Assembly: GCA_965219415.1 (NCBI GenBank)
Contig: CBDCNP010000002.1
Location: 2,592,001 to 2,656,000 of the forward strand
Length of the DNA stretch: 64,000 bases
Direction: 5' to 3'
Source: Candidatus Marinacidobacterales bacterium
Lineage (GTDB): Bacteria > Acidobacteriota > Vicinamibacteria > Marinacidobacterales > DATDRI01
The notes under the pieces were generated by a model. It made no database searches and was not told the origin of the DNA. It saw nothing but the letters and a program-made list of their open reading frames with translations. Made by a program: the position numbers and the translations under genes. Each line of letters opens with the position of its first letter. Within the stretch, counting starts at the first letter, position 1. Of the stretch, positions 6,554-60,807 are shown piece by piece.

Positions 6554-6733
6554 TGTGTCTTCTATTTATTCATCCGCGCGCCCCGAACTTGATCGGTCTC
6601 CGGTCTCCCGGGACCATGTCTGCATGATCTCGTCGTTTGTTCGCGCTCGGCCCTTGGCACGGCCGCAAACACAGACACTAAGTTGCTGATTTATGGGCTA
6701 TTTCAAAAGGGCCGAGTTTTGGCACAGGACGGG
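6554..6733 (+). mobile_element. C+A hybrid MITE (~180 bp); also 24212-24392, 44977-45156, interrupted 31627-31767, short 60210-60303
   Basis: Begins with the type-C end and finishes with the type-A end GGCACAGGACGGG; repeated. Confidence 0.85.
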
Positions 6734-7180
6734 TTCACAACCTCGACGGTGAACAGGTCTGTCGCAGCGATGGCGCCCCAATGAGCCTTGATGAAGGTGC
6801 TCCACGACATGCTCTTGCCCCGCTCCGGGGCAGGCGCGATACCGTGCTCGGCGAGGATCCTCTTGATAGTGTTGCGTCCGAGTTCTCATGTCCTAGGTTC
6901 TTGAGTGCGCCTCGCAGGCGCGTATATCCCCACGTCGGGTTCTCCTGCGCCACGCGCACAATGAGCTCACGGATGTCCTTCGCCGTCGGAGGTCGGCCTG
7001 GGCTCCGGTTCTTGCTGCCATCGTACTTGGCTGCGATGAGGCAGCGGTACCAACGCAGAAGCGTAGCGGGTGTGGCAACGGACGCAATCTGGGCCAGCGC
7101 CTCGCGGCCCAAAGCCTGGGCCTTGACGGCGAGCCTGCGCCGCTCGTCGTCCGAGAGCCTGAGACGCTTGCCCCGAAGCC
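6734..7180 (-). pseudogene. Internal fragment of the type-A integrase bounded by two type-A ends
   Basis: [11 protein letters not shown]...ENPTWGYTR matches 19619-20689. Confidence 0.85.
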
Positions 7181-7489
7181 TGTCCTGTGTCAAAACTCGG
7201 CCCTTTTGAAATAGATCGCAAATCAGCAGCTTAGACGCCCTTGGAATCCGCGCAGAATCCAGGGTATTTCGCGCCGTAGGGCTGGCTTCCGACCCTTGGG
7301 CTGCGGGTGGCGGGCGACAGGCCCACCGGGGGTGCGCACGGCTGGCTCAAATCGGCTGCGGGGCGAGCTGCAGGCAACGAACTGTGCACCCGGAAGGAAT
7401 ACGTATCCGACCGCGATGCCGGATTCAAGCAGCTCTTGGAAAGGTGCAAACTGCTGACCCGATGGGCGTTCGAGTATTTTGACTAGACG
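7178..7489. mobile_element. A+E hybrid non-autonomous element
   Basis: Type-A end on the left; ~7395-7489 matches the type-E end region ~57955-58050. Confidence 0.75.
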
Positions 7490-11942: not shown

Positions 11943-14905
11943 TCGATCACGAACTCCACGGCCAGAATACGGGTCCTTTCTGGCGAGGCGTATCGACGAT
12001 CGAACGCGTGCTGCTTCCACCGCTGATAATCCGTATCGTCGCGGGCTTCGAGCTTCGCAATACGTGTTTCGAGTTCTTCGAGCTTTTTCTCGAGCTCTGC
12101 GAGCTTCTTGGTGGGCCCGTCGCGGGCGTCGGGACCTAGGGCGGCATCACGTTTCGCCTCCGACTCTCGCATGCGAGCCTTCACATGCTCTTGCTCTCTG
12201 CGAAGGACCAGCACCTGGTCATCCATGAATCGCTCGAGTTGCTCCATGGTGCGTTCGAAGTGCTGCTGTTCTGCGGCTTCGACGCGAGCCTGGTCAAGAA
12301 ATATGCTTTCCTCAATCGCGTCTTCGATATCCTCGTCCGTCACCGACAAAGGCGGCGTAAACGCATTGATACTCTCCGCCTCCAGTGACAGCACGGGACT
12401 GATCAGCTCCGGCGCGACGGCGACGTCGGTGTCTTCAAGGGTCAGACTCGGCACCAAATGCTCCACGGCCTCAACACCGTCATATTTCACCTTCGTGACG
12501 GCCAAGTACCCGCGTTTGTGGCGGTATTCGTCCAGCGGATCGCCTAACTTGTCGTTCAGCTTGAAACGCACTCGGAGGCGACCCTCTGTGGCGGCTCTGG
12601 ACTCCTCCAAAGCAGCACGAACCAATGGATGGCCCAGATGCACCGGGTCAGTGTCCTCCAGGTCCTTAGCATGTCCAATGGCCACCTGCGCGCCCTCGCG
12701 CAGTTCTTCCGGTAGAGCCGGCGATGCGGAAAGCTCGAGGAAGATCCTACCGTCCTTCGTCGTCCGCTCGAAGGGCGCGTTGATCGCGGTCAAGTAGCCG
12801 GTCACTACCTCATCAATATCCCGATCCAATTGTGCAAGACTGCTCGGTAACTCTTCCTGGATCTGTCGGAAGACAGCTCTAACCGTCTTGTCGATCCGTG
12901 TCTCGATCAGGCCTCGTGTTCGATCGATCTCCTGCTCGAAGTCGCGCCTTTTGGCCTCCATGGTTTCGCGCAACCCGCGAAGCTCCTCCTCGATCTCCTC
13001 CACCGTTCTCGCGCGTTCGTAGATACGGCGAAGTCGAGACTCGAAATCCGCACCAAGCGCCGTCGTAAGCGTTTCCGGCGTTGATGTCGACGCTTCGTGC
13101 AGTACGACGTCAGATGCGTCGAGCACCGTGCCGAAGAGGTCCAGCTTGTCGCTGAGAATCTCAAAAAGAAGACGTTCGGCTTCGTTGTCTTTGGCGACGA
13201 AGTTAATGACCGTGACGTCGTGTGTCTGACCGTATCGGTGGCACCGTCCGATTCGTTGCTCGATCCGTTGCGGATTCCACGGAAGGTCGTAGTTGATCAG
13301 AGTGTCACAGAACTGAAGGTTCAGTCCTTTTGCGCCGGCCTCGGTTGAGATGAAAATCCGGGACCGTGTTTGAAACTCGTGGACCAGCGCGAGGCGGGCA
13401 GCAACACTTCGGCTCGGGCGACTGTACTTTGGTATATGCTGACCAACTTCCTCGTCCCAGCATTCCAAAGCTTCACTGGCTCTCGGCGACGCATTATCTC
13501 CGCGGAATAACGTGATATCTCGAGGAGCGAAACCGCTCTTAATAAGAATGTCCTTGAGGTGGTCCTGTGTTGTGAGTGACTCCGTAAAGATGACGATCTT
13601 GCCGCTACCTTTGCCTTTTCTCTCCTGGATGAGGCGGACAGCCTCGAGGAGCCGTTCGGCCTTGCCGTCCCGCGGAAGGCGCTCGACGCGTTGAACGAAG
13701 CGCTGAACACGTTCGAGCTCGTCTTGGATCTTCTCTGGGGTCAGCGCAGCCGGTGCCGTCTCCTCGTCCTCGGCTAGTGGGGGTAGCTCGTCTTCGAGAT
13801 CCAACGCGAAATCACGGACGCTTTCGCTGAGACGATGCGGAGTGACGCCAGCGAGCATTCTCTCCAGTCGTTCCGCAACCTTGCGCAGACTCGCGGCCAG
13901 GGCCGCAAGCGAGGAAGCCATGAGGCGGTGGAAACTGATAAGGAGAAGTTGCCTCTGATTGCCACTAAAGGCACAGATGTTGGGCTCAAGGAGATATCGA
14001 GTCACATCGTCGTAGACCTGGCGTTCCTCCGGACTCATTCGGTACTCGAGCAAAAGTGCTCGGCGGTCAACAAAGGGTTTGTCTAAGAACTCCTGGGCCT
14101 GGCGACGAAGCGTGCGCTGGCAAATGCGGCTGATGCGTCGCCGCAGCTCATGGGCTTGGTCGACCACGAGCGACCGATCGTCACCGTCGCAGAACACCTC
14201 GCGGAAGGTTGCGAGGTTTCCAAGCAGAGTACCCGTTGGCTCGATCCATTGCGTTAGGCCCCAGAGCTCCACAAGGGAGTTCTGGATGGGTGTTGCTGTG
14301 AGCAGCAACTTGGGTACGTCGGTGAACACCTGACGCACGCGATGCGCCATCTGCGCGTCCTTGGAGTCTTCTTTGTAGAAGCCGTAGCGATCAAACCGCT
14401 TGTGGATGCCCGCAAAAATCTCGTGCGCCTCGTCGATGACACATAGGTCGAAACGCTCGACGGACCGCAAGAGACTCGAGCCCTTTTCACTCCCTGCGAA
14501 ATCGCGAGAGGTAAGAAACACGCCGGGGCCGATGAAAGCGTCCGGGCTCAGCGAGCCCTCCTGGGTCTCGATCCCAAAGAGAGTGTAGAGCTCGTTCTGC
14601 CATTGGCCCAGAAGGGCCTTCGGCAAGATCAGGAGGACCCGTTGCCAACCCTCCGCGAGCAGCTGAGCAATGACCAAACCCGCTTCAATCGTTTTGCCGA
14701 GGCCAACTTCATCTGCAAGAATGCAGCCGCCTTCTGGAATGCGCTCCAATGCGAAGATGACTGCGTTGATTTGATGAGGGTTCGGGTCGATACGGCCACG
14801 GCGCTGGGACGCCGCGTACCGACGATGTTCGCTCGCCCGGCGAAGGCGCACGAGCTCTTCAGCCTGAATGCGGCGATGGATCGGATGCGGTGTCTCTTGA
14901 GACAA
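11939..14905 (-). CDS. SNF2-family helicase/translocase with C-terminal coiled coil
   Basis: LADEVGLGKT, DEAH, LTATP, STEAGAKGLNLQ, QRIGRCHRYGQ; ATGA overlap with the nuclease gene. Confidence 0.92.
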   Translation of the reverse strand: MSQETPHPIHRRIQAEELVRLRRASEHRRYAASQRRGRIDPNPHQINAVIFALERIPEGGCILADEVGLGKTIEAGLVIAQLLAEGWQRVLLILPKALLGQWQNELYTLFGIETQEGSLSPDAFIGPGVFLTSRDFAGSEKGSSLLRSVERFDLCVIDEAHEIFAGIHKRFDRYGFYKEDSKDAQMAHRVRQVFTDVPKLLLTATPIQNSLVELWGLTQWIEPTGTLLGNLATFREVFCDGDDRSLVVDQAHELRRRISRICQRTLRRQAQEFLDKPFVDRRALLLEYRMSPEERQVYDDVTRYLLEPNICAFSGNQRQLLLISFHRLMASSLAALAASLRKVAERLERMLAGVTPHRLSESVRDFALDLEDELPPLAEDEETAPAALTPEKIQDELERVQRFVQRVERLPRDGKAERLLEAVRLIQERKGKGSGKIVIFTESLTTQDHLKDILIKSGFAPRDITLFRGDNASPRASEALECWDEEVGQHIPKYSRPSRSVAARLALVHEFQTRSRIFISTEAGAKGLNLQFCDTLINYDLPWNPQRIEQRIGRCHRYGQTHDVTVINFVAKDNEAERLLFEILSDKLDLFGTVLDASDVVLHEASTSTPETLTTALGADFESRLRRIYERARTVEEIEEELRGLRETMEAKRRDFEQEIDRTRGLIETRIDKTVRAVFRQIQEELPSSLAQLDRDIDEVVTGYLTAINAPFERTTKDGRIFLELSASPALPEELREGAQVAIGHAKDLEDTDPVHLGHPLVRAALEESRAATEGRLRVRFKLNDKLGDPLDEYRHKRGYLAVTKVKYDGVEAVEHLVPSLTLEDTDVAVAPELISPVLSLEAESINAFTPPLSVTDEDIEDAIEESIFLDQARVEAAEQQHFERTMEQLERFMDDQVLVLRREQEHVKARMRESEAKRDAALGPDARDGPTKKLAELEKKLEELETRIAKLEARDDTDYQRWKQHAFDRRYASPERTRILAVEFVIE

Positions 14906-15303
14906 GACTCTCTTCTAAACCTGTCGAATTAGACGGCGTCAAAAAGTCTAGCATGGCTCTCGGAAAGTCGTCTATTTCCACAAAGCTGCCTCATAACTAG
15001 CGGCTACTCATTCTCAGACGAGCATCTGAATAGAATCCTTGTGAGCGCGCTTCAGAACCCGACCTTGCAGCTCGTCGTTTACGTTCCCGAAGCGTGCTGC
15101 GACGGTCAGGGTATCGATCTCAGAAACTGCAGCGACTGGGTCCAGCGCGTGGTGGGGCTTGAGTCCCCGCAAGTTACCATTGTCGGTGGCGGTCCAAACG
15201 CCTATTTTAGCGCGTTGGTGGACCACTTGCCGGATCCCGCAATCTACGACGAACCAGCAGCGCGAATCCGGGAGATGATCAAACAGTATCGAGAACGGTC
15301 CAC

Positions 15304-15601
15304 CCCGTCCTGTGCCAAAACTCGGCCCTTTTGAAATAGACCACAAATCAGCAGCTTAGACGCCCTTGGAATCCGCGCAGAATCGAGGGTATTTCGCGCC
15401 GCAGGGCTGGCTTCCGACCCCTGGGCTGCGGGTGGCGAGCGACAGGCCCACCGGGGGTGCGCACGGCCGGCTCAAATCGGCTGCGGGGCAAGCTACGGGC
15501 AGATGAGAGCGCGAACAAACGACGAAATCATGCAGCCATGGTGCCGGCAGACCGGAGATTAATCAAGTTCGGTGCGCGCGGATGAAAAAATAGAAGGCAC
15601 A
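15304..15601. mobile_element. A+C hybrid non-autonomous element
   Basis: Type-A end on the left, type-C end on the right; first ~190 bp repeat 7178-7370. Confidence 0.8.
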
Positions 15602-16088
15602 CCCAGGCTTTGGGCCGCGAGGCGCTGGCCCAGATTGCGGTGCTTCCGCCATCAAGTGTTGGTGAAATGACGCTAAGACTTTACGGTGCATTAAGTTACA
15701 GCCAAAATAGCGCTCGTGACCTTCGCTGCGCGCTAAATGGAGCGTAAGCGCCTCTTTTGCAAAGGGATGCGTACACATCACCAACAGTAAACAGCGCAAG
15801 CACCAGAGGGCCGAGTTTTGGCACAGGACGGGGTTCAGGGTCGTGTAGCGTCCCGCACTCAGCAATCAAAGCGGCCGCGTGCGGTTTTCGGCGCTCGACT
15901 CAAAGAAAGATTCCTGCATCGGTTGTTTTTGAGCTATACTCAGCATACGTTTAGTCGCATTCCGATCTGCGCCTGACCCGTCGCGGTTATCCCTTCCGGT
16001 TATCCTCGAACGAAATCAACATCAAGTTTTTGCCTAGATCGGCCGGTGCCAGGCACTGGATAGGCTGATTCAGGAGCATTCAATATCT

Positions 16089-17327
16089 ATGTCTTTCGAT
16101 ACTCTCGGCCTGTCCGCCGAGCTACTGCGCGCTGTGGCCGATCAAGGCTACCTCCTTCCCACACCGATTCAACAACTCGCGATTCCACCCATACTTCGTG
16201 GTGATGACGTCATGGCGCGTGCCCAGACGGGTACCGGCAAGACGGCGGGGTTCACGCTGCCGCTTTTGCAGCGCTTGGCCGCGACGCCAGGAACGAGAGG
16301 CCGTCACGTGCTGATCCGCACGTTGATCCTTACGCCGACCCGCGAGCTCGCCGCGCAGGTGCAGCAGAGCGTGAGGACCTACGGACGATACCTACCGTTT
16401 CAATCCACCGTCGTTTACGGCGGCGTCGGCTTCCGCCCGCAAGCACAAATGCTGCGGCGGGGTGTCGATATTCTCGTGGCGACGCCTGGCCGTTTGCTAG
16501 ACCACGTCTCGCAGGGAACCGTCGATCTCTCGAGCGTGAACATCCTTGTCCTGGACGAAGCCGATCGCATGCTCGATATGGGCTTCATCCATGACATCAA
16601 GAAGATTCTCGCTAAGCTTCCGGCGAAACGACAAAATCTTTTGTTCTCCGCGACCTTGTCACCAAAGATCCAGCGACTCGCAGATCGTCTGTTGAACGCT
16701 CCCGCAAGGCTCCAGGTCGAAGCCACGAAACCGACCGTGAACAGCGTGACGCAGACCATCCATCTTGTAGATCGAGGACAGAAGAGCGCGCTGCTCTCTT
16801 TCTTGATTGGAACCGGGAGCTGGAACAAGACTCTCGTCTTCACGCGCACGAAACGAAGGGCCGACCGGCTGACACGGCATCTAAAACAAGACGGAATCCG
16901 TGCGGCCGCGATGCACAGCGACAAGAGCCAGGGTGCCCGGACGCGAACCCTCGCCGACTTCAAGAAAGGTACGGTCTCCACGCTCGTGGCGACGGATATC
17001 GCGGCCCGAGGCCTCGATATCGATCAGCTTCCCCACGTCGTCAACTTCGATCTACCCTACGTTCCTGAGGATTACGTCCACCGCATTGGCCGCACCGCCC
17101 GTGCCGGGAACACAGGTGACGCGGTGTCTCTCGTTTCGAGTGAGGAAGCAGGTCTCTTGAGCGAGATCGAACGTCTACTCGGCAACCGGCTTCCCAAGAA
17201 GGTCGTCGCCGGGTTCGAGCCCCGTCACAGCCATCATGTCCGAAAAAGCGAACGAAGCCGAAAGCTCGAATCCTGGAGGCGTTCTCGACATTCGCTGAGA
17301 CTAGCCGACGAGGCACTGGCTCTGTGA
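16089..17327 (+). CDS. rhlE: DEAD-box RNA helicase RhlE-like
   Basis: [34 protein letters not shown]. Confidence 0.88.
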
Positions 17328-19387: not shown

Positions 19388-20819
19388 CCCGTCCTGTGCC
19401 AAAACTCGGCCCTTTTGAAATAGGCCATAAACCAGCAGCTTAGTGTCTGTGTTTGCGACCGGGCCGAGGGCCGTGGGCTTTACAATCATCTTGGGCGGGC
19501 GGGTCGTCACCATGCAGATGACCACCTAGTCGAGAGCGAATATCCAAGCGTGTTCCTGAAGCTGTTTCCACGCTACGCCGGTCGAGCCCGCCGAGTGGCT
19601 ACCGTCGCCGGCGACAATCTACGCGGCACGGCAGTAGTAGTTGAGAATACCCCCAAGTCGCTCTCGCGACACGATGGGGCCAGCGTCATTCGCGCTTGCC
19701 GGCAGAGGTGTGATGAGCTCGTTGCCGAGACCTTGGTGGTTCCGTTCTGTGTGATAGTGCACTACGTATTCGGTTACCGCTGTGCGCAGGTGTCGCTCAC
19801 TGAGAGGTACGAAGCGGTCGAGACACTCTCGACGTATGGAGAGAACGAATCTTTCCGCATATGCGTTCAGATTCGGACTATTAGCGGGAAGGCGAAGGGG
19901 CTTCACGCCTGAATCTCTCAACAGCCCACGTACCGCCTCGGTGAATAGTGGGTCCCGGTCGTGGATGAGGTATCGCTTGCCAAGGAGGAAACCATCCCAC
20001 AGGTCAGTGAGGTTTCTTGCCACCTGCTTCATCCACTCCCCGTTGGGGTCCGACGTTATCCCACCGATGCACACGCAGCGAGTGGCGATATCGATGACAA
20101 ACAGGACATGGTAGCGGACGAGCCCGAACGGGTTCACCACCTCGACGGGGAACAGGTCTGTCGCAGCAATCGCGCCCCAATGAGCCTTGAGGAAGGTGCT
20201 CCACGACATGCTCCTGCCCCGCTCCGGCGCAGGAGCGATACCGTGCTCGGCGAGGAGCCTCTTGATGGTGTTGCGTCCGAGTTCATGTCCGAGGTTCTTG
20301 AGTGCGCCTCGCAGGCGCGTATATCCCCACGTCGGGTTCTCCTGCGCCACGCGCACAATGAGCTCACGGATGTCCTTCGCCGTCGGAGGTCGGCCTGGGC
20401 TCCGGTTCTTGCTGCCATCGTACTTGACTGCTATGAGGCAGCGGTACCAACGCAGAAGCGTAGCGGGTGTGGCAACGGACGCAATCTGGGCCAGCGCCTC
20501 GCGGCTCAAAGCCTGGGCCTTGACCGCGAGCCTGCGCCGGTCGTCGTCCGAGAGCCTGAGACGCTTGCCCCGAAGCCCGGCTCGGAGCACACGGTTCTCC
20601 TCTTGCTGGTAGTCGATCACATCCTGCTGCTGGCGGTTGACCCAGCCAGCTAGAACGAGCAGTAGGAATTGCACGTGGTACGTCATCATGGATCTGAAGA
20701 TAACACCCTCGGGCTAGACGATTGTAAAGCGCACGGCCCTTGGTCCGGTCGCAAACACAGACACTAAGCTGCTGATTTATGGCCTATTTCAAAAGGGCCG
20801 AGTTTTGGCACAGGACGGG
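19388..20819 (-). mobile_element. Complete type-A IS-like element, 1432 bp, ~104-bp TIRs
   Basis: 19388-19491 and 20716-20819 are inverted repeats with 5 mismatches; single ORF; no TSD. Confidence 0.92.
19619..20689 (-). CDS. rve-type DDE integrase/transposase of element A
   Basis: [12 protein letters not shown]; [18 protein letters not shown]; C-terminal [11 protein letters not shown]. Confidence 0.92.
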
Positions 20820-40272: not shown

Positions 40273-40595
40273 CCGCTCCTAATGTAATGTACGTGCCCTT
40301 CCCACATCCAAGTAAAGAGTCACAGCTCTCGATAGATAATATCGCGCGAAACATACAAGGTGGGAATCGCACGAGTGCGGATCGTTTGTGCGACCGGCGC
40401 GACCGAGCGGGAAGGCGACGCGTGACGACCCGGAACTGGCACGAAATCTGGATGGAGCAGTGCGAGACCGCCGAGACCATCAAGCTGCGGTACGGGTGCT
40501 TCCGCCATCAAGTGATGGAATGGACTCCTCCACTGACATAGACGGCATCGATGTGCCAAAGTCAGTCGAATACGCATCGAAAAGGAGGAGTCCGA

Positions 40596-40821
40596 ATGAA
40601 AGATACGACGATCGCTGTGGATCTTGCAAAGAACGTCTTCGAGATTGCCATTTCGGGAGAAGCGGGGAAGGTGTCCAAGCGACTCCGTGTGAGTCGACCC
40701 AAATTGGTGTCGTTCTTTGCCAAACAGAGCGCTGCCACCGTGCTTCTCGAAGCCTGCGGCTCGGCTCACTTCTGGGCAAGGACGTTCCGAAGGTTGGGAC
40801 ACGACGTCGTCCTGCTCCCCG
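40596..40821 (+). pseudogene. IS110-family transposase N-terminal fragment
   Basis: IAVDLAKNVF...EACGSAHFWAR; cut by a type-A end. Confidence 0.85.
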
Positions 40822-40971
40822 TCCTGTGCCAAAACTCGGCCCTTTTGAAAAACCATGTCTGTAATTTAATGCACCGTAAAGTCTTAGTGTCATTTTACCA
40901 ACACTTAATGGCGGAAGCACCCATGAGGTCTGTGTGAGCGGCAGGGCTGCCCGATCGAACAACGGCTGCCT

Positions 40972-41138
40972 GACCAACAGTAGGAATTGCACATGGTACG
41001 TCATGATGGATCCGAAGATAACACCCTCGGGCCAGACGATTGTAAAGCCCACGGCCCTTGGCACCATCGCAAAACACAGACGCTAAGCTGCTGATTTATC
41101 AGCTATTTCAAGAGGGCCGAGTTTTGGCACAGGACGGG
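40972..41138 (-). mobile_element. Type-A left end stub
   Basis: TIR plus [11 protein letters not shown]. Confidence 0.85.
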
Positions 41139-42265: not shown

Positions 42266-42715
42266 ATGAATAGAATCATAGCAGTTGTAGCGATTATCGC
42301 ACTCTCACTGAGTACGGTCGGTGCCGCATTTGAACAAACCACCGCAACCTTCAAGAAGTCACGAGTGTTAGATCCAGAAGGAAAGGAGAGAAAGGCAGAA
42401 CTCGTTTTCAAAGACAACATGTTGACGATTCACCGGAAAGGTCACAGCGACGAAGTCTATTCATCCATTCCGTACAAGGGTATTACGTCGCTGCTGTACG
42501 AACGCGCTAAAAGTGCTCGCCTGAAATCAGCTCTCTTCCTTTCACCACTCGTGCTGTTCTCGAAGGGGAAAAAGCACTGGTTGACCATTCAATGGACCGA
42601 AGGCGACAAACGTGATGCGGCGATCCTAAAGCTCGACAAGAAGGAGTATCGAGCCATCCTGGGACAAATATCTGCACGTGCTGATGTCGAGCTCGTAAGG
42701 GAGGAATCAAAATAA
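42266..42715 (+). CDS. Hypothetical secreted protein
   Basis: RBS, signal-peptide-like N-terminus. Confidence 0.65.
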   Translation: MNRIIAVVAIIALSLSTVGAAFEQTTATFKKSRVLDPEGKERKAELVFKDNMLTIHRKGHSDEVYSSIPYKGITSLLYERAKSARLKSALFLSPLVLFSKGKKHWLTIQWTEGDKRDAAILKLDKKEYRAILGQISARADVELVREESK

Positions 42716-43322
42716 CGAACGGAGTGGGAGGTCGCGCCTGTGCCTTCTATTTATTCATCCGCGTAATGGAGATCACGGATATACTCAGCCAGAACGTGCC
42801 CCTGGAGGACGTGCAGTATCTGGCCGGACACTCCAACCCCTCGGGCCACACAGATCTATGACCGGCGTAGACAGCACGTCACTCGCAACATCGTGGAGCG
42901 TGTCTCGATATGAAAGAAGGACCAAGGAAGAGAGACATCCTTTCGAGGCCTGCTAGCAAGAAAGCCGCTGCACGGCCTCGTTCGGCTCCCCGCAATGAAC
43001 CCAAGCCGGTGCCGGTTCCTGTGCTTTCTATTTATTCATCCGCGCGCACCGAACTTGATTAGTCTCCGGTCGGTGCTTCCGCCATTAAGTGTTGGTGATG
43101 TGTACGTATCCCTTTGCAAAAAAAGAGCTTACGATCCATTTAGCGCGCGGCGAAGGTCGTGAGCGCTATTTTGGCTGTAATTTAATGCAGCGTAAAGTCT
43201 TAGCGTCATCCCACCAACACTTAATGGCGGAAGCACCGCCTCACACGGTCAAACCTCTGCGAGTCACCCCGGCAGAGCCGGAGGTTTACCTGTGATAATT
43301 AAAGATCCAGGGGACTAGTGGC

Positions 43323-44786
43323 ATGAGCACATCCAAAGAAGAGTTCACGTCTCGATGGGGGATCCTGCTGACCTCGATCGGCATGGCGGTCGGCACCGGG
43401 AACATCTGGCGTTTTCCACGAGTTGCCGCCGCGAATGGAGGAGGATCGTTTCTCATCCCCTGGGTGATCTTCCTGTTCGCGTGGGCGATCCCGCTTCTTC
43501 TCGTCGAGTTCGCTCTCGGCAAGACCACCCGCCGCGGCCCGGCGGGCGCCGTTGGAACGTTGATAGGAGAACGCTACAACTGGTTGGGCGTTTTCGTGGG
43601 ACTGGTGACGTGCTTCATCACGTTCTATTACTCCGTCGTCACCGGGTGGTGTCTGAAGTACTTTACCGTTTCCTTGGGCACGGTGTTCTCCGCCGACAAT
43701 GCCGAGAGTTACTGGACGCGATTCACTAGCGATCCCATCCAACCGGTCATCTTCCACGCCATAGCACTCGCTATAGGATGCTCCATCATTTATAGAGGCG
43801 TCGTCCGTGGTATCGAGCGGACCAACCGCATCCTCATCCCGGCGCTTTTCGTGCTCCTCATCATCGCGGCCATCCGTGCGGTCACTCTTCCCGGGGCCGT
43901 GAAAGGCCTGGCCTATCTGTTCACGCCGAACTGGGAAGACCTCGGAAACTACCAAGTCTGGCTGGCAGCGCTAACCCAATCCGCGTGGAGCACCGGCGCG
44001 GGCTGGGGCCTGGTCACGACCTATGGCGTGTACTTCCGCAAGAAAGACACGTTCACGCTGACGACGCTCACGACCGCGTTCGGCAACAGTTCGGCTTCGC
44101 TTCTCGCCGGCATCGCGGTGATGTGTACCGTCTTCGCCCTTCTTCCCGAAGACCAGGCCTCGGCCGCTCTCGCTGCCGGCAACGAAGGCCTGACGTTCAT
44201 CTGGATGCCGCAGCTTTTCTCGTCGATGCCCGGAGGGCGACTCTTTCTCCCCATTTTCTTCCTCGCGCTGAGCTTCGCGGCGATTTCGTCGCTCATCGCC
44301 ATGCTCGAAATGGCATCCCGCATGATGATGAACCTGGGTTTTTCGCGCACCCGCGCCGTGGCCACGGTCGGCGTGGTGTCGTTTGTGCTCGGCCTTCCCT
44401 CGGCGTTTTTCATGGGCTTTTTCAAGAATCAGGATTGGGTCTGGGGCATCGGCCTCATGTTCTCCGGTTTCTTCATCGCGGTGACCGTCATCAAGTACGG
44501 AGCGGCGAAATTCCGGGAGGAGCTCATCAACACCGAAGATGAGAAGCATCCGATCGGTAGCTGGTTCGTGTGGGTCATCTCGATCGTCGTGCCGCTCGAG
44601 TTTCTTGCCATGCTGGCATGGTGGTTCTACCAATCGGCGACGCAATTCGATCCCGATGGCTGGTGGAAGCTCCGGAGTGAATCGAGCGTTGGGACCGCCG
44701 TCATCCAAATTTCGGTGCTCGTCGTCGTGGTTGTCATCACCAACACCTACTGGGTCCACCGCCTGAAAAAGAGTAGCGGATCGTGA
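43323..44786 (+). CDS. NSS-family sodium-dependent transporter
   Basis: GMAVGTGNIWRFP, NGGGSF. Confidence 0.93.
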   Translation: MSTSKEEFTSRWGILLTSIGMAVGTGNIWRFPRVAAANGGGSFLIPWVIFLFAWAIPLLLVEFALGKTTRRGPAGAVGTLIGERYNWLGVFVGLVTCFITFYYSVVTGWCLKYFTVSLGTVFSADNAESYWTRFTSDPIQPVIFHAIALAIGCSIIYRGVVRGIERTNRILIPALFVLLIIAAIRAVTLPGAVKGLAYLFTPNWEDLGNYQVWLAALTQSAWSTGAGWGLVTTYGVYFRKKDTFTLTTLTTAFGNSSASLLAGIAVMCTVFALLPEDQASAALAAGNEGLTFIWMPQLFSSMPGGRLFLPIFFLALSFAAISSLIAMLEMASRMMMNLGFSRTRAVATVGVVSFVLGLPSAFFMGFFKNQDWVWGIGLMFSGFFIAVTVIKYGAAKFREELINTEDEKHPIGSWFVWVISIVVPLEFLAMLAWWFYQSATQFDPDGWWKLRSESSVGTAVIQISVLVVVVVITNTYWVHRLKKSSGS

Positions 44787-44970
44787 GCTTGGAGCTCGCG
44801 GAGAAGGACAAAGCACTCCTCGCGGGCGAACTCGGTCGTGCTGCGAAGATGGCGATGTCCATCCTCGTGCGCATGGCCGACGTGTACCGCGCGGAGCGCA
44901 TGCTCGACATCACCGGCGCTCACGTCGACAGCACCATCTACGTTGGCGACGCTGGGCTCGAGTTCAGATC
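44783..44970 (+). pseudogene. Aconitase X (DUF521)-like N-terminus, truncated
   Basis: AMSILVRMA...LDITGAHVDS; cut by a C+A MITE. Confidence 0.7.
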
Positions 44971-45500
44971 AGATCCTGTGCCTTCTATTTATTCATCCGT
45001 GCGCGCCGAACTTGATCGGTCTCCGGTCTCCCGGGACCATGCCTGCATGATCTCGTCGTTTGTTCGCGCTCGGCCCTTGGCACGGCCGCAAACACAGACA
45101 CTAAGTTGCTGATTTATGGGCTATTTCAAAAGGGCCGAGTTTTGGCACAGGACGGGGGTGCTGAATTGAAATTGAAATATCCGACCATCCGAAACGGTTG
45201 TCCGTGCCCTTGCCATCCTGACAAGCTGGCGTGGTGTGGGCGGTGCCTTGACCGCCATCGACCGACCAAGGGTAAAGACGAGGGAGACGAGTCCGGGTTC
45301 GTCGATACCTCCACGGTGATAGGTGCAGGTGTTCCGGTGGCAAGGCGCGATCTAAGGAGATCATCGTCTCCCACGAAAACAGGCTTGCACATTCGCCGTC
45401 TAAAAGCTCTGTGAAGGTCCGCCCTTGCCATACCCCTCTGGCGGCTCACGGACCGCTTAGCAAAATCAAATATAACAAAGGCTTACGGGTGGAAAATCTC

Positions 45501-46019
45501 ATGGTTAAAATGACCAATTGGTTGCGGAGGGCGATCGAATCGTCGAAAGTTCGACCTCTTGAAGTCCGGGAGGACGTGGCCATGGTCCATATCAATGCGA
45601 GCGCCGGCTATGCCCAGGTTGAAAGCTATCGCGATTCCAACTCCGTGTTGATTGAGCGCCTGCGACCACGAACGCGGCTGACGATTGATTCCGCGAAGCT
45701 GGTCGAGATTGGTCCTGACGTTTGGCTTCGAGCGCACACCGTCCAAGAGAAAGGTGGCCCCGTGTTCAAGTTTCAGATATGGCTAGCGCCCACGTCCGAG
45801 GATACGGCTCACATTGCGGCCGGCGTTTTCTTCAGTCGGCCAAGTCCGATTTGCTCCGGGCGATTTACTAACGTGAAGGATCTCGATCGGGATTACGCGC
45901 TCGGGTGGGAGTCGGCCGTCGCTTGGAGCTTTTTGGTTTGGAGCGATACACCCCTGTACCTCAACGATCGCGACGTCGGCCGTTGGCCTCGGTCCATTAC
46001 CGATCCCAAATGTTCTTAG
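45501..46019 (+). CDS. Hypothetical protein
   Basis: Open ORF with no recognised motif. Confidence 0.4.
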   Translation: MVKMTNWLRRAIESSKVRPLEVREDVAMVHINASAGYAQVESYRDSNSVLIERLRPRTRLTIDSAKLVEIGPDVWLRAHTVQEKGGPVFKFQIWLAPTSEDTAHIAAGVFFSRPSPICSGRFTNVKDLDRDYALGWESAVAWSFLVWSDTPLYLNDRDVGRWPRSITDPKCS

Positions 46020-46125
46020 TTCGAGGCTCGCGAGCGGCCATCAGCACGCCTTTTACTTCCTTAAAGATCGGTCGGAAAACACGGCGGTTCAGGGCGCTGA
46101 GGACTCTAATATTGCGCCGCCGTTT

Positions 46126-48951
46126 ATGCTTGGAGGAGGGAATGTACCTGTGACCGTCAGCCAACTCGATTTCGCTCGTTTTCTTCGACGATCTCCGACC
46201 TCCCGGATTCGATCAGCGGCGTTCGCCTTGGGAACGATGTTGTTAGCCCAAGCCGCCAGTGCGCAGACGCTAGAGGTGAAGGTTGTCGATCCGCTTTCTT
46301 TCGCCGTGACCAACGCGACGGTCGCGATTGGCGATCGGGAGGTGCGGACCGACGGTACGGGTACGGCAGTGTTTCAAAGCCTGGGTGCCGGCCCGCACTC
46401 CGTTGTGGTTTCGGCTCCCGGCTTCGCGACAGCAATTGAGGAGGTGGCCGAGTCGGAAGGAACTGTCACGATCGAACTGCAGGTACAGTCGGTCAGCGAG
46501 GTCATCAACGTGCAAGCCAACGTCGGCACCCGAGCGCTGCCGCGGACGGTCACAGAGTCGGTCGTACCCATCGACGTCATCTCGTCCAACGACATGGTCG
46601 GCCGAGGTGATACGGACATCGCGGATCAGTTGAGAACCGTCCTGCCCTCCTACAATGTCAACGCCCAGCCCGTCGGCGACGCGGCCAGGATCGTTCGGCC
46701 AGCAACCCTCCGTGGCCTGGCACCCGATCACACGCTGATCCTGGTCAACGGGAGACGGCGGCATCGGTCGGCGATCATCACTTGGCTGGGGGGCGGATTT
46801 GCAGACGGCGCCCAGGGACCGGATATCTCGGTTATCCCGTCGATCGCGCTGCGGCAGGTCGAAGTGCTGCGGGATGGCGCCTCGGCCCAGTACGGCTCAG
46901 ACGCCATCGCAGGTGTCATGAACTTCCGACTCAAGGACGACTCCTCCGGTGGCAGTTTGGAGTTTCGTACCGGCCGTTTCATCGCGGGTGACGGTGGCAC
47001 GCACACCATTTCCGGCAACCTCGGTCTGCCGTTAGGGCCGGCCGGTTTTGCCAACCTGAGTGTCGAGTACGGCAACTCTGGCGATACCAGCCGCAGCGTC
47101 CAGCGTACCGACGCTGCGGCTCTCATTAGGAGTGGCAATACCCATGTCGCGGATCCGGCGCAGATCTGGGGCTCTCCGAAAATCGACGACGATTTCAAGT
47201 TTTGGGGCAACTTCGGACGCGTCTTCAACAAGGTACAACTTTATGGTCATACGAATTACGCCAGCAGGAGGGTAACCGGCGGGTTCTTCTTCCGTAATCC
47301 CAATACCCGGGCTGCGGTCTTCAGCGCTGATGCCGGCGAGACCCTGCTCATCGGCGATGTGCTCGACGCTCAAGACGGGATCCTCGATGGTTCGGCTAAC
47401 TGCCCTGAGGTGCCGGTCGTCAACGGGGTCCCCCGTCAGGAGACCCTTTCCAGAGTCTTCCTTGATCCCGGCTGTTTCTCTTTCCAGGAAATCTTCCCAG
47501 GGGGGTTCACGCCGCAGTTTGGCGGTGAGCGGACCGACGCATCCGTGGTCGCCGGTCTCCGCGGCCAAGCCGCGGGAAGAATGGTTTGGGATGCCAGCAT
47601 CAGCCAGGGCTACAGTGCAGTGGACTTTTTCATCTTCAACACAGTCAATGCTTCACTGGGTCCGACAACACCCACCGACTTCGATCCCGGTCTCTACCGG
47701 CAGCAGGACCGCGGCTTCAATCTGGATCTTAGCTACGCCGTCAACGAGCGCGTCCACCTGGCTGGCGGTGGCGAGTGGCGTGAGGAACATTTCGAGATTG
47801 GCCTTGGCCAGAGGGAGTCGTGGGAGATCGGCCCGTACGCCCCTCAGGGCTTCAGCGCGGGCTCCAACGGCTTTCCCGGATTCAGTCCCATCGCCGCCGG
47901 CCAATGGAGCCGCAGCAACATAGCGCTCTACGGCGATGTCGAGTTGCGGGGTAACGTAGGCAAGTGGGCAGTCGCCACCGCCGCCAGGTTCGAAGACTTT
48001 GAAGATTTTGGCGCCACCCTAAACGGCAAGCTCGCTGGCCGTTACCAATTGACCCAAGATTGGGCACTGCGCGGGAGCGTGAGTAGCGGATTTCGGGCGC
48101 CGACGCCCGGACAGCAGAATGCGTTCAACGTGTCGACCCGTTACGATCTCCGGCTCATGGACTTGGTCAACGACGGCATCATTCCTTCGACCTCGAGGGT
48201 GGCTCATCTCCGAGGCGGGCGGTTGCTGGAACCCGAGCGGTCGATCAACTACAGCCTGGGAGCGGTGATCGACAGAGGCCCGCTCAAGTTCACTGTCGAT
48301 TACTTCCGCATCGATCTTTCCAATCGACTCGCCTTGACACGGTCGTTCGTTCTCAGTCCCGAGGAAGCGGAGAACCTCATCGCAGAGGGCGTCACCAGTG
48401 CGCGCAACCTGCAGAACTTCCGTTTCTTCACTAACGACTTCGAGACCCGGACACAAGGAATCGACTTGGTGGTCACCTATAAGCCGGCGGCGCTCAGCGG
48501 CGACACGACGTTCGACTTCCTCTTCAACCACACCGATACTGAAGTCACTGAGTTCAATCGGGATGTGTTGGACACCGAACGGATCCGTCGATTGCAGAAA
48601 GCGGTTCCCGGAACGCGCTGGAACTTCACCATGCATCATGGTCTCAGCCGATGGCGTCTACTCGGACGCCTCAGCTACTATGGCGACTGGTACGATTCGC
48701 GGGACGTTCGAGTCTACAACGGCGAGTATCTCTTCGACTTTGAAGCTTCCTATCCCCTCAGCGAGTCCATCACCTTCACCGTTGGCGTCCAGAACTTGTT
48801 CGACAATCAACCGCAGGAGAACCCCAACGCCTCCGCCACCGGCAATCGCTACAGCGCATACACGCCGTTTAATTACAATGGTGCGTTCTACTACGTCCGG
48901 CTCGGCTACAACTGGAAGTGGAAGAGTGGTAGCGGCCGGAGTGTCCCCTGA
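46126..48951 (+). CDS. TonB-dependent receptor
   Basis: Plug motifs LRGLAPDHTLILVNGRR and EVLRDGASAQYGSDAIAGVMNF; GFRAP; barrel C-terminus. Confidence 0.92.
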   Translation: MLGGGNVPVTVSQLDFARFLRRSPTSRIRSAAFALGTMLLAQAASAQTLEVKVVDPLSFAVTNATVAIGDREVRTDGTGTAVFQSLGAGPHSVVVSAPGFATAIEEVAESEGTVTIELQVQSVSEVINVQANVGTRALPRTVTESVVPIDVISSNDMVGRGDTDIADQLRTVLPSYNVNAQPVGDAARIVRPATLRGLAPDHTLILVNGRRRHRSAIITWLGGGFADGAQGPDISVIPSIALRQVEVLRDGASAQYGSDAIAGVMNFRLKDDSSGGSLEFRTGRFIAGDGGTHTISGNLGLPLGPAGFANLSVEYGNSGDTSRSVQRTDAAALIRSGNTHVADPAQIWGSPKIDDDFKFWGNFGRVFNKVQLYGHTNYASRRVTGGFFFRNPNTRAAVFSADAGETLLIGDVLDAQDGILDGSANCPEVPVVNGVPRQETLSRVFLDPGCFSFQEIFPGGFTPQFGGERTDASVVAGLRGQAAGRMVWDASISQGYSAVDFFIFNTVNASLGPTTPTDFDPGLYRQQDRGFNLDLSYAVNERVHLAGGGEWREEHFEIGLGQRESWEIGPYAPQGFSAGSNGFPGFSPIAAGQWSRSNIALYGDVELRGNVGKWAVATAARFEDFEDFGATLNGKLAGRYQLTQDWALRGSVSSGFRAPTPGQQNAFNVSTRYDLRLMDLVNDGIIPSTSRVAHLRGGRLLEPERSINYSLGAVIDRGPLKFTVDYFRIDLSNRLALTRSFVLSPEEAENLIAEGVTSARNLQNFRFFTNDFETRTQGIDLVVTYKPAALSGDTTFDFLFNHTDTEVTEFNRDVLDTERIRRLQKAVPGTRWNFTMHHGLSRWRLLGRLSYYGDWYDSRDVRVYNGEYLFDFEASYPLSESITFTVGVQNLFDNQPQENPNASATGNRYSAYTPFNYNGAFYYVRLGYNWKWKSGSGRSVP

Positions 48952-49378
48952 GAGACCGTGACAAGAAATCCGGTCCGATGACCAGGTTTCAACTGTGTCG
49001 ATCCGGCACCCCACAAATTTTCAAGGACTTGGGCGTTGCAAAACCCTATTTCAGTGTCGATTCGATTGGCGATACCGTCGTGTCCAAAAATACAAACGAA
49101 CTCAAGACCGGCGCGCCGGCTGCTTGGAGTCGCTCCAGAACGGCCCCGTCCTGTGCCAAAACTCGGCTGTGCCTTCTATTTATTCATCCGCGCGCACCGA
49201 ACTTGATTAGTCTCCGGTCTGCCCGCTGTGCTCCGCAAGGAGTCGGTCCAGTGGTACGCGATCTTCTTTTTTGCGGATCACAGGTAGCCGCAACGAACGT
49301 TCGTCTCGATCATCTTTCGCGACTTGGAAACCGAATAGAACATCGGCAAGCCTGTCGCGGATCACTTATGATTCGGCC

Positions 49379-49870
49379 ATGCGCTCATTGCTCAAGATTG
49401 CCGTCGGCATTGCCGCCCTAGTCGCGACGTTCGGGGCCGGGTGGCTCGTCGCAGTCACCGGTACCGGTCAAGCGATCCCCCCGGCCTCACTCTCGGAACT
49501 TGAGCGGGTGTTCGCCGAGCGGATGCAGAACGTGGTACTCACAGGCCACTACACCATCGAAGGCCGCGAGCGTCGCGACGACAACTCGGAACGCTACGAG
49601 ATCACCAGCGTGGCGAAGGTCGGTGATCACAGGTGGCGGTTCGACGTTCACATGACCTACGGAAGCGTCGACGTGACGCTGCCGGTCGTCGTGCCCATCC
49701 AGTGGGCGGGTGACACTCCGATGGTCACCATGACCGACGTCGCCATCCCGGGGCTCGACGGCACTTTCACAGCGCGGGTCATGTTCCACGCAGAACGATA
49801 CGCCGGCAGTTGGCAGCACGGCGAGTCCGGTGGGTTCATGTACGGCACGATCGCGCCGCTGAGCGACTAA
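49379..49870 (+). CDS. Hypothetical membrane-anchored protein
   Basis: N-terminal TM segment; intact ORF between two type-G ends. Confidence 0.65.
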   Translation: MRSLLKIAVGIAALVATFGAGWLVAVTGTGQAIPPASLSELERVFAERMQNVVLTGHYTIEGRERRDDNSERYEITSVAKVGDHRWRFDVHMTYGSVDVTLPVVVPIQWAGDTPMVTMTDVAIPGLDGTFTARVMFHAERYAGSWQHGESGGFMYGTIAPLSD

Positions 49871-50146
49871 AGGATGGATGTGTGCTGGCTCGTGACCTTC
49901 ATTGCTGTAGAAGTGGAAGCAAAAGGCCTTGTACCTTATAGATGATGTCGGCGTGCAGAGGAAGGTCAGGCACATGTGATCCGCAAAAAAGAAGATCGCG
50001 TTGGCCTACCTGTGTCGGCGAACGCCATAAATCCTAAGTAAGGATGTCGCCGAATGTCAGGCACCACGTGGTGAGTCCAGCCGGCATCGACGAAAGAACT
50101 GCGCCTCTCGAAATCAGGCTAAAACTCCTAGCGCGAACGGATTACG

Positions 50147-50396
50147 GGTGCTTCCGCCATCAAGTGTTGCTACGCCGTGTTCGAATGCTAGTGTCAGTTG
50201 GCCTGCCTGTGTCGGCGAACGCCATTAATGTTAATAAGGATGTCGGCGTGCACACGAAGGTGTCTCTGAACGTCAGGCACCGTGTGGTCAGCCCAGCCCG
50301 CATCGCCGAAAGAACTGCGTCTCTCGAAATCAGGCTCAAACTCTAGCACACGAGCGAGTTACGCGGCAGCCACCAACACTTGATGGCGGAAGCACC
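50147..50396. mobile_element. Type-D MITE (~250 bp) with B-family TIRs; second copy 51059-51309; partials 50003-50146 and 27570-27612
   Basis: GGTGCTTCCGCCATCAAGTGTTG inverted at both ends. Confidence 0.88.
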
Positions 50397-50607
50397 CGAC
50401 GGTCCCGATCGAGGATCGCGGTGACCGTCTTACCCACGCAGTGTCGTCCGATGAGCCCGGCGAGCTCGGCCACGGCAGTCTCTAGCTCATCTCGACAACC
50501 GGTGGCAGCGCTTGGACGACTAGGACCGCCCTCCTCGTCTCCTCGGTCAGCTTGGTGCGATCGGCTTCCTTCCAGTTCCACCACTCGGGCCAGCGGTGAT
50601 TCTGCAA

Positions 50608-50955
50608 TCAAGTGTTGGCGGCCGCCGAGAGCTCATCGACCTTGGCGGCCAAGATGAAGTCGCTTTCCGTCAGGCCATCGATCTTGTGAGTCCAGATCGT
50701 GAGTCTAACCATACCCCATGCCAGGTGGATATCTGGGTGGTGTCCCTGGGCTTCAGCCAGCTCTCCGACTCGGTTGGTGAATGCGAGGGCCTCCCGGAAG
50801 TCTTTGAATCGAAACTCTCTCTCCAAATGATGTTGTTCAACGGTTCGCCAGTTGCCACCGAGCTTCTGCTGGAGTCCCTTTAGCGCGGGACCTCGGATCG
50901 GCGGCACCCCGCCCCGGCAGGGTACGCATTCCTTTTTCGCTAGCTCATTCGCCAA
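50608..50955 (-). CDS. phhB: Pterin-4-alpha-carbinolamine dehydratase
   Basis: AEAQGHHPDI, WTHKIDGLTESDFILAAK. Confidence 0.88.
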   Translation of the reverse strand: MANELAKKECVPCRGGVPPIRGPALKGLQQKLGGNWRTVEQHHLEREFRFKDFREALAFTNRVGELAEAQGHHPDIHLAWGMVRLTIWTHKIDGLTESDFILAAKVDELSAAANT

Positions 50956-51427
50956 TTGGACCTCCTCGCAGCATAACAGTGAACCTATTTTAACCGGCGG
51001 TCTACCAGATCTCCGTCAACCAGTTTTCCGTTCAGCACTTTGCCACCCCGTCCTGTGCGGTGCTTCTGCCATCAAGTGTTGCTACGCCGCTAGAGGCATT
51101 TGAATGCTAGTGTCAGTTGGCCCGCCTGTGTCGGCGAACGCCATAAATAAAGGATGTCGGCGTGCACACAAAGATGTCCTGAACGTCAAGCACCGCGCGG
51201 TCAGCCCAGCCTGCATCGCCGAAAGAACTGCGTCTCTAGAAATCAGGCTAAAACTCTAGCACGCGAGCGGGTTACGCGGCGGCCGACAACACTTGATGGC
51301 GGAAACACCGCGGTGACCTGACGGACACGACTTCTCGATCACCTAACGAGTGCCACTTCATTGCCTTGGTGCACAACTCGCGATCTCGGTCCACAATTGT
51401 CCTGTACTCGCGGATACGAGGTTCCCC

Positions 51428-51533
51428 ATGAGCATTTTCAAACGCACTCAGCGGAAGTATGTAAAGAACGCCTATCGCGTGAGGAATTGGCGTGAATACG
51501 AGGCGGGTCTACGCAACCGCGGGAGCCTGACCG
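51428..51533 (+). pseudogene. IS5-family transposase N-terminal stub
   Basis: YRVRNWREYEAGLRNRGSLT. Confidence 0.7.
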
Positions 51534-51703
51534 CGTCCTGTGCCAAAACTCGGCCCTTTTGAAATAGACCACAAATCAGCAGCTTAGACGCCCTTGGAAT
51601 CCGCGCAGAATCCAGGGTATTTCGCGCCACAAGGCTGACTTCCGACCCATGGGCTGGCGGATGAATAAATAGAAGGCACAGCCGAATTTTGGCACAGGAC
51701 GGG
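51532..51703. mobile_element. A+C hybrid MITE variant capped by an extra A stub; inverted copy 59030-59178
   Basis: Repeated ~150-bp unit with A and C ends. Confidence 0.82.
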
Positions 51704-51775
51704 GTTCTGGTGATCCCCGTTCGGCGGGACATGGCTTGACTTCCTTAAAGACGCCTCGTCGAGGGAAGGACCGAT

Positions 51776-53140
51776 TTAGGAAACGTACCAGGTCGGAGCG
51801 GGGCTGATCTGGGGTTCCGGTCTCGCTGTGGCATGTACGCTGAGTCGGATCGAGTTCCACCGACCACAATGCTCGCAGTAGTCGGCCCACTCGGCGTAAG
51901 TGGTTCCGCAAGAACCACAACTGTAGTCATGCATCAAGCCACCGATCTCACCCAGCACCGTCTTGCTTTTGCTGAGTGCTTCCTTGAAGTCGCCCTTACT
52001 CTCCAAAACTCGCGCGATGTAGACGTGCAGAGCGGGGAGACCGCTTACCGCATCCTCGATCTGTCGAAACTCGTTCAAGGCTTCGTCCAACATGAACAGT
52101 CGGTAGTACAGTTTGCCGAGGCAATACCGTAACGGAGCCTCGTTATCCGACATCACGATCGCCTGCTTCCACGTTCCGATGGCCTCTTCCGGCCGCTCCG
52201 CTCCCAGGAAATGATTTTGCACCGCGGAGAAGAGCTCGGTGGATCCGGTGCTCTGAAACCCCTTTCGCCAAACCGACAATGCTTCGTCAACGTCGCTGGC
52301 CTCGATGCGCGCCTCCCCCAGCTTCAGGTACGCGGGGACGAACTCGCTATCGCGCTTCAGAACTGAGTTGAAAGATTGGATGGCTTCCTTGACATCGCCG
52401 CGGGCGAGCTGCTCACGCCCCACTTCGAACCGGATACCGATGGATGTTTCCTGCGCCGCTTCTTTTTCGGCGGTGAGCGTGAGCATCTTCTCTATCTTTG
52501 ACTGAAGCGCATCGGCGGCGGCCCAGTCTTTTTGTTTGATTTTCAGGTCACGTAGCTTGTGGTGGGCCGACACGGTCGCTTGAGGATCGAGCTCGATGAT
52601 CCGCGTCAACACCTGCTCCGCGTGTTCCCAATCTCCGAGATCGTGATAGGCATCGGACAAGCAGTAGAGCGCTATGAGGTGCTCGGGCGCTTCCACGATC
52701 GCCTTTTCCAGCGAGACCGCAGCTTCCCGGTACCGCTTCAGGGCGCGCAGGCTGTCACCTTGCTTGATGAGGGCGTCCAGATGGTTCGGCTCGCGTGCCA
52801 ACGCATCGTCGAACCTAGCAACCGCCTGTTCGTACCGCCCATTCACCATGTCGTCCAAGCCGTGGAGGTAGAGGTCCTCGGTTCTCTCGTGGGCACGGTG
52901 TAGTCGTTTCTCCTTCCAGTTCCGGGCAAACCGCCGCGCACCACCGGCGATGTCGAAGAACAGAATGAGCGCTGCACCCGCACCGAACGCCCCAAGGAGC
53001 ATCATCCAAAGCTCCAAGCTAAAGGGCTGCAGGAAGGCTAGGCTTATCTGGACCGGCTCCCGGTTCATGACGATGGTGGACGCCAGAATCCATGCCGCCA
53101 CGAAAATCAGCAGCAGGCTGAATAGGGTCTTGAACCTCAT
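51776..53140 (-). CDS. LapA-LapB-like fusion (TM segments, TPRs, rubredoxin-type Zn site)
   Basis: Two N-terminal TM segments, TPRs, CGSC...CEHC. Confidence 0.72.
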   Translation of the reverse strand: MRFKTLFSLLLIFVAAWILASTIVMNREPVQISLAFLQPFSLELWMMLLGAFGAGAALILFFDIAGGARRFARNWKEKRLHRAHERTEDLYLHGLDDMVNGRYEQAVARFDDALAREPNHLDALIKQGDSLRALKRYREAAVSLEKAIVEAPEHLIALYCLSDAYHDLGDWEHAEQVLTRIIELDPQATVSAHHKLRDLKIKQKDWAAADALQSKIEKMLTLTAEKEAAQETSIGIRFEVGREQLARGDVKEAIQSFNSVLKRDSEFVPAYLKLGEARIEASDVDEALSVWRKGFQSTGSTELFSAVQNHFLGAERPEEAIGTWKQAIVMSDNEAPLRYCLGKLYYRLFMLDEALNEFRQIEDAVSGLPALHVYIARVLESKGDFKEALSKSKTVLGEIGGLMHDYSCGSCGTTYAEWADYCEHCGRWNSIRLSVHATARPEPQISPAPTWYVS

Positions 53141-54466: not shown

Positions 54467-54480
54467 CCGGAAGGACGACG

Positions 54481-58722: not shown

Positions 58723-58729
58723 CGTCCAA

Positions 58730-60716: not shown

Positions 60717-60807
60717 GGGCCTCAGATAATCACAACGGGTGGCGAAGAGTCAATGGGGTGTTGGTCGTCGTGTTAGACTCTGCTCCCGCAGGCGCGGCCC
60801 GCTTCCG

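Follow-up and report, generated by a model that had tools for sequence, protein, structure and literature searches.

Members of the IS481 family carry TGT ends and make target duplications of 4 to 15 bp, and elements of the IS3 family duplicate 3 to 4 bp of their target. IS26 and other IS6 elements transpose replicatively and produce adjacent deletions; their 8-bp duplications can be traced between copies, and their targets do not resemble their ends. IS911 targets its own inverted repeats, as IS30 does. For IS30, two kinds of insertion have been described, one into hot spots and one beside its own inverted repeats. The second proceeds by single-strand transfer via a branched intermediate, and the reactive end-to-end junctions that result give rise to cascades of deletions and inversions (PMC9333248). 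Ngan et al. (2024, mBio) reported new IS copies, including copies of an IS481-family element, that lie at the junctions of rearrangements and lack duplications (PMC11708052). As a rule, DDE insertions are recognized, dated, and delimited by the duplication of their target, which is their standard footprint.

Here, we analyze a group of ends, termed type A, in a stretch of 64,000 nucleotides (the window) from a Candidatus Marinacidobacterales bacterium. Judged from sequence, type-A ends appear to be the terminal inverted repeats of a very abundant single-ORF rve (DDE) insertion sequence and of many miniature derivatives. The explanation that we consider best, with a probability of about 50%, is that a DDE element joins single ends beside pseudo-ends without duplication, leaving breakpoints and deletions. 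In the literature on ISLbi1, on target duplications and miniature elements of the IS481 family, and on insertion sequences of sponge symbionts and Acidobacteria, we found nothing on the ends or the absent duplication of this rve family.

The type-A element and its transposase

The transposase of the reference full-length element (Table 1) is encoded in one ORF and contains rve_3, HTH_21, and HTH_32 domains. The earlier note had proposed this ORF for a transposition assay; as a correction to that note, the ORF lies on the minus strand. In overall layout, the element resembles IS481, with a single ORF of ~350 amino acids, an N-terminal HTH, an rve-type DDE core, no frameshift, a length of 1.0 to 1.5 kb, and terminal inverted repeats. 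The IS481 model NF033577 was also its best NCBIfam match, yet the score of 95.6 bits lies far under the cut-off of 224. The IS3 model NF033516 gave 81.2 bits against a cut-off of 160, and the single ORF does not have the two-ORF, -1 frameshift layout of this family; IS30 was absent from the NCBIfam matches of the transposase. The curated models would thus place the type-A element outside IS481 and IS3, and the protein is probably best described as an unclassified rve/DDE transposase closest to these two families.

A protein search returned at least 8000 homologues at E <= 0.001. Among the best 120 listed, many are ~357 amino acids long and 64 to 66% identical, and they are named only "transposase InsO family" or "putative transposase"; plasmid relatives carry only the NCBI pipeline name "integrase core domain-containing protein." The sole hint toward the ISNCY/ISLbi1 group came from tblastn, with matches under 60% identity on 39 Leptospira plasmid records. 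The lack of any duplication sets the element further apart from IS481; the type-A tips begin with CGT (CGTCCTGTGCC). That such ends are atypical for DDE enzymes, which usually end in TG...CA, had been suggested before and is half right: type-A tips do not start with TG, whereas the sister B-type ends start with TGTGCC.

Table 1. Positions of type-A features in the window
Feature	Position	Strand	Description
Reference full-length type-A element, 1428 bp	19390..20817	-	CGTCCTGTGCC...GGCACAGGACG; terminal inverted repeats ~55 bp
Transposase gene, 356 aa	19619..20689	-	HTH + rve_3 integrase core
Miniature element, 178 bp	6554..6731	.	B-type end TGTGTCTTCTATTTATTCATCC at 6554; right-facing type-A end, tip ..GGCACAGGACG at 6731
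Fragment of type-A transposase gene	6732..7180	-	= 20131-20577 of full copy; about 27 full-length genome matches
Miniature element, 309 bp	7181..7489	.	Degenerate type-A end TGTCCTGTGTC at 7181; sister end ..GAGTATTTTGACTAGACG, tip at 7489
Type-A miniature element at breakpoint, 317 bp	40820..41136	.	Joins repeat X to unrelated repeat Y
Full type-A tips (n = 25), four bases outside TCCTGT: CCCG			20 tips
Full type-A tips (n = 25), four outer bases CGCG	17780, 51534, 53170		3 tips
Full type-A tips (n = 25), four outer bases GTCG	63817		1 tip
Full type-A tips (n = 25), four outer bases CCTG	7179-7182		1 tip

Type-A tips are far more frequent than expected by chance. The motif CGTCCTGT occurs 27 times in the window versus 2.66 +/- 1.56 times (maximum, 7) in 100 shuffles, and an 18-mer tip has 511 matches in the genome (8.05 Mb, three contigs), where the reversed control has none. 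The 25 full tips of the window agree exactly with the earlier listing of tips as NNCG-TCCTGT, mostly CCCG, with CGCG, GTCG, and CCTG exceptions. Genome-wide (n = 536), CCCG was found at 371 ends, CGCG at 44, CTCG at 23, GGCG at 21, and GCCG and GTCG at 13 each; CC is the outer pair in 69% of these tips. F-type ends (CGTCGTGTCC), which had also been claimed, are present. Type-A copies form strong clusters: only 40 of the 750 CGTCCTGT matches fall on contig C1 (2.07 Mb), most copies lie on C3 past 2.5 Mb, and the interval from C3:1872693 to C3:2516213 is without any type-A tip.

A piece of the transposase gene trapped between two miniature elements

Between positions 6554 and 7489, two miniature elements enclose a part of the element's own transposase gene (Table 1). 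Units of the B..A kind, 148 to 179 bp long and similar to the left-hand element, were found repeatedly across the genome, and the right-hand element has dozens of genome copies of 308 to 316 bp with 90 to 98% identity. The left junction (6720-6739) reads tggcacaggaCG|GGttcaca, the vertical bar marking the junction and the final G of the tip being position 6731. The right junction (7172-7192) reads ccgaagCC|TGtcctgtgtc, with the variant tip TG at 7181-7182, in a type-A end that is degenerate by two C-to-T changes. Positions 6732-7179 align with 20131-20576 of the full copy over 448 nt with 96.0% identity and two gaps, and the remainder of the transposase gene is missing both to the left and to the right. 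The 449-nt piece is target DNA caught between two tips, both of which point at the fragment.

In the intact gene, the corresponding sequences are gaACGGGttc (20126-20135) and gaagCCCGgct (20572-20582), and CC(C/T)G or ACGGG is common to this gene and both junctions of the fragment. The earlier note was right that the core already exists in the element's own gene at both places, and it had offered two readings of this, a strong short target preference or strand exchange within the core. Empty-copy readings for the two junctions are CC|CGTTCGG (26 of 28 copies) and CC|CGGCTCG (33 of 41 copies). As judged from the genome-wide comparison below, the junctions at 6731 and 7180 appear to be ordinary members of a minority (29%) in which CG was already present in the target.

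Element boundary and target preference

The boundary of the element was located by comparing type-A flanks with uninterrupted paralogous copies of the same DNA, all within one assembly. In 158 of 181 distinct junction families with an exact tip, the two bases outside CGTCC were identical in the empty copy. Where this outer pair is CT, CG, GT, GG, or GC, the empty copy carries the same pair; because it is shared by filled and empty copies, NN is target DNA. Position +3, in contrast, is always C in filled sites and variable in empty ones (A,.34; C,.37; T,.18; G,.11). CG is missing at the junction in 112 of the 158 empty sites and always present in the filled site, and therefore the element carries CG. 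Distant relatives with 46 to 90% protein identity, from other phyla and metagenomes, had CGT...ACG ends in 32 of 53 distinct elements called, the other 21 having been called without CGT tips, partly from wrongly set repeats; the CGT-tipped elements adjoin unrelated flanks. These observations place the likely cut exactly at 5'-CGTCC..., with everything outside belonging to the target.

Two alternative views of the tip can be weighed against these data. If the element were TCCTGTG...CACAGGA, CG would be a 2-bp duplication of a palindromic CCCGGG target, a reading suggested by the sequence CCCG-TCC...GGA-CGGG at both sides of elements. It is refuted by the ~71 to 72% of empty sites that lack the CG of their filled counterparts; CC|GG targets are moreover rare, with G at only 11% at +3 and 5% at +5, and CGT tips are kept in distant relatives beside unrelated flanks. 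We regard this alternative as scarcely credible. The second view is a site-specific strand exchange in a CG or CCCG core that would be obligatory in element end and target alike. It is in keeping with the core shared between the intact gene and the junctions at 6731 and 7180, with the lack of duplications, and with an enrichment of CG (46 of 158 empty sites; 9 to 27 of 158 at control offsets) and CCCG (35 of 158; controls, 0 to 2 of 158) at the junction. However, CG is absent from 112 and CCCG from 123 of the 158 empty sites, so that the identical core in both partners that characterizes a common-core site-specific recombinase is not found. In sites whose NN is CT, CG, GT, GG, or GC, the product combines target NN with element CG, the switch occurring exactly at the tip; the tips of relatives also read CGT...ACG, and the sole enzyme encoded is an rve DDE protein. 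A requirement for a shared core, the second of the two earlier readings, is thus largely refuted and in our view improbable.

The other reading, a strong short target preference, gains from the same sites, and the CCCG enrichment that the earlier note had named as its test is present. The logo of the 158 empty sites is cgACCC|NGTcc (-2 A,.62; -1 C,.59; +1 C,.89; +2 C,.75, followed after the junction by +4 G,.65, and +5 T,.60), in a genome with a CpG frequency of 10.4%. When five or more concordant empty copies per family are demanded, the 64 families that remain agree with this picture (CG in 15, G at +4 in 40, T at +5 in 39). For the full element, the flank logo cgACCC| is identical at both ends (67 + 67 distinct flanks). 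The empty sites match CGTCC at three or more of the five positions from +3 to +7 in 82 of 158 cases, compared with 97 of 790 at control offsets, a likeness of target to tip that covers just 3 to 5 nt. The target thus seems to mimic an end-flank junction, with a flank ending in CC followed by tip-like sequence. Because of this mimicry, C, CG, or CGT(C) is often present in tip and target alike, which is a preference and not a need. Some of the pseudo-ends are genuine ends of sister elements; copies of one and the same flank were found to adjoin an F-type end in one case and a type-A end in the other.

Missing duplications and lone ends

Among 99 neighboring plus/minus end pairs, 51 had both flanks repeated elsewhere and could be tested for a restored target. 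For none of these 51 elements did a paralog show the two flanks as contiguous, with up to 30 nt allowed in either direction. Direct repeats of at least 3 bp were found in 0 of 25 distant relatives (shuffle mean, 0.71) and 2-bp repeats in 6 of 25 (mean, 5.5); these 25 are distinct elements picked for CGT at both tips, about three of which (L048, L063, and L072) look like miscalled repeats. Flanks of the kind CC|...|GG were present in 9 of the 25. Type-A joining would accordingly involve no duplication of 3 bp or more, a stagger of 0 to 2 bp being indistinguishable from none, and it differs in this respect from IS3, with its 3- to 4-bp duplication. The absence of duplication that the earlier note had considered fits both comparisons.

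Two further target models were rejected. A 1-bp duplication, in which the other flank would be the last base followed by N-G-T, fitted 5 of 50 orientations in the 25 relatives versus a shuffle mean of 4.18, and a palindromic target is ruled out by the empty-site logo.

The second half of the target is conspicuously rare. In 217 target families, at most seven rows showed the other half adjoining a family-type tip 1 to 3 nt from the junction, and a narrower search gave 16 matches with scattered offsets. The mirror flank class expected of a two-ended insertion is missing. Head-to-head type-A pairs amount to just two within 60 nt genome-wide (11 and 29 nt between tips), with none at 10 nt or less, so that abutted end-to-end junctions are absent from the genome assembly, which by its nature cannot show free circles. 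Elements also occur in chains, each of which begins with an intact end and is truncated by the next intact end.

The element at 40820-41136 illustrates such a breakpoint. Its left flank is the initial 326 bp of the 1691-bp repeat X, identical in 13 other copies listed of 31, all 13 of which continue past the junction. On the right, it adjoins internal sequence of repeat Y; among the 33 other copies of Y, those listed are 99 to 100% identical. The right half of repeat X was never found beside anything else.

Repeat X itself (40494-40819 in the window; full copy, G000:C3:3004467-3006157) has the ends GGTGCTTCCGCCAT..ATGGCGGAAGCACC, and several of its copies lie at one identical place inside type-A ends (..GAAATAGACC|GGTGC). 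A flanking repeat is not obvious for this element either, and it lacks a clean footprint.

Similar one-sided conservation was seen in relatives. For the element at 15306-15830, only one flank is conserved. To the left of C3:657803-659229 lies a conserved gene, which continues in four relatives, and to the right lies another, mobile segment, 100% identical in a second species, G001; these flanks would fit a breakpoint without fixing the ancestral bases. Reading frames across removed elements and paralog searches for six candidates yielded no supporting paralog. In three distant relatives (L047, L079, and L068), ORFs considered as possible interrupted genes had no Pfam match in any of six pieces, and arguments from reading frames were set aside. 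In contigs of four public runs (X7 to X10) compared with 44001-64000, no clean empty site was found for an element in unique DNA, these contigs being short and broken at repeats; the joints listed link different copies of repeats. The two ends of one element have independent histories in this genome.

Two explanations would remove the need for unusual joining. The assembler might have created the breakpoints by joining repeats falsely, as could happen in a genome in three contigs with 8.45% contamination. The true partners must then exist elsewhere, yet no junction between a tip and the right half of X was found, and an identical tip-flank junction is present in G001, which makes this highly improbable. 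Alternatively, the elements might have inserted in the ordinary two-ended DDE manner, duplicating a few bases, and homologous recombination and adjacent deletions might later have erased the footprints. The 536 near-identical ends of the genome would offer substrate, repeat X likewise lacks clean footprints, and recombination between copies and adjacent deletions are documented as causes of absent duplications (PMC11708052). Flank shuffling, however, would leave both target halves beside some end, which is at odds with the seven rows at most in 217 target families and with contiguous flanks in 0 of 51 elements. Half of the ends should show a mirror flank (GAC N' G| or GAC N'|), yet CC accounts for 69%, NGT empty sites are equally found for the CG and GG classes, and the empty-site logo is nonpalindromic about the junction. 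Later erasure therefore appears unlikely to us as the general cause.

Proposed mechanism

We favor single-end joining beside pseudo-ends, for which the following course can be envisaged. Joining would be biased to cgACCC|NGTcc, that is, to a flank ending in CC followed by a pseudo-end like the element's own tip. Read along the transferred strand, the product is ..GGACG-GGx', compared with ..GGACN'-GGx' in the empty site; thus, the incoming 3' end would be joined at the very phosphate where cleavage would occur were the target itself an end. The incoming end would thereby take over the place of the pseudo-end on the pseudo-end's flank, and each end in the genome would represent a separate joining event. 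Strand transfer might be one-ended or pseudo-end-targeted, comparable to the targeting of own repeats by IS30 and IS911. The tip-to-pseudo-tip junction on the opposite side is proposed, admittedly ad hoc, to be unstable and then lost, which would explain why target halves are missing, why breakpoints arise, and why abutted tips are not seen. The other target half would be lost or rearranged, so that elements come to lie at breakpoints and in truncated chains. The chemistry, the one-ended nature of the reaction, and any stagger of 0 to 1 bp are what we infer. Part of the pattern may also reflect general genome decay, since other insertion sequences, such as repeat X, are without clean footprints as well.

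In its mode of action, the type-A element seems most like end-targeting copy-out-paste-in elements. With IS911 and IS30, it shares a preference for sites beside its own or own-like ends, including real sister ends. In contrast, IS30 also makes hot-spot insertions with 2-bp repeats and abutted junctions, neither of which was seen for type A; the type-A pseudo-end comprises just 3 to 5 nt and a CC flank, and the proteins are not close. As in IS26, ends would gain new flanks singly, leaving many copies without flanking repeats, although the transposase belongs to another family. The cases of Ngan et al. arose rarely, in the laboratory, and from elements whose insertions normally duplicate the target, whereas the type-A pattern holds as a rule across hundreds of ends, together with a defined target motif.

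It is tempting to extend the preferred reading to the whole rve/DDE family, with its homologues across phyla: a cleaved 3' end would attack the would-be-cut phosphate and exchange itself for the pseudo-end at GACCC|NGTCC, with one junction per event and no duplication. This extension is tentative, and we hold it possible with the odds rather against it. If true, a DDE enzyme would act as a loose site-specific recombinase that drives deletions and the shuffling of modules in sponge-associated Acidobacteriota and that spreads from one genus to another. Annotation tools would miss or misread a large family that lacks duplications and lies at breakpoints instead, and accounts of symbiont genome erosion and island shuffling would change. 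With the ACCC|NGTCC motif and elements of 150 to 320 bp, the mechanism is directly testable with one protein and short DNA.

Sister ends and spread among relatives

The B-type end TGTGCCTTCTATTTATTCATCC, at 6554-6575 in the window, has 243 genome copies. Its three outer bases are target DNA (mostly G/A, G/C, C/T), and its empty sites continue with N-C-T. B ends pair with type-A ends in the 148- to 179-bp units, and the flank of the B end is not CCCG. At 49147-49190, 51660-51701, and at least 10 more loci, a recurrent composite end is present, in which a B-type end immediately succeeds the initial 19 nt of the type-A tip (..AAAACTCGGC). At 42685-42861, an ORF fragment ending in ..VQYLAGHSNPSGHTDL lies directly inside a B-type end and recurs behind several B ends; this ending may resemble the C-terminal box of tyrosine recombinases.

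In G001, a 102-bp miniature element (L104:1094-1195) with E-type ends TGTGATCCGCAAAAA has the flanks GACC|..|GGTC, of the kind found at type-A ends. An 800-bp flank together with its tip junction is 100% identical in this species. The miniature elements of 14700-16400 (compared in L103 and L104) recur at 96 to 99% identity in two families of the order, with 5 of 7 genomes of family f1, 15 of 17 of f2, and 0 of 16 of f3. Relatives rich in these elements include G003, G014, G016, G018, G022, G026, and G034. Near-identical elements and an identical junction point to a probable recent exchange between Candidatus Marinacidobacterales species. The public runs containing the 14700-16400 stretch are, among those labelled, sponge or plain metagenomes.
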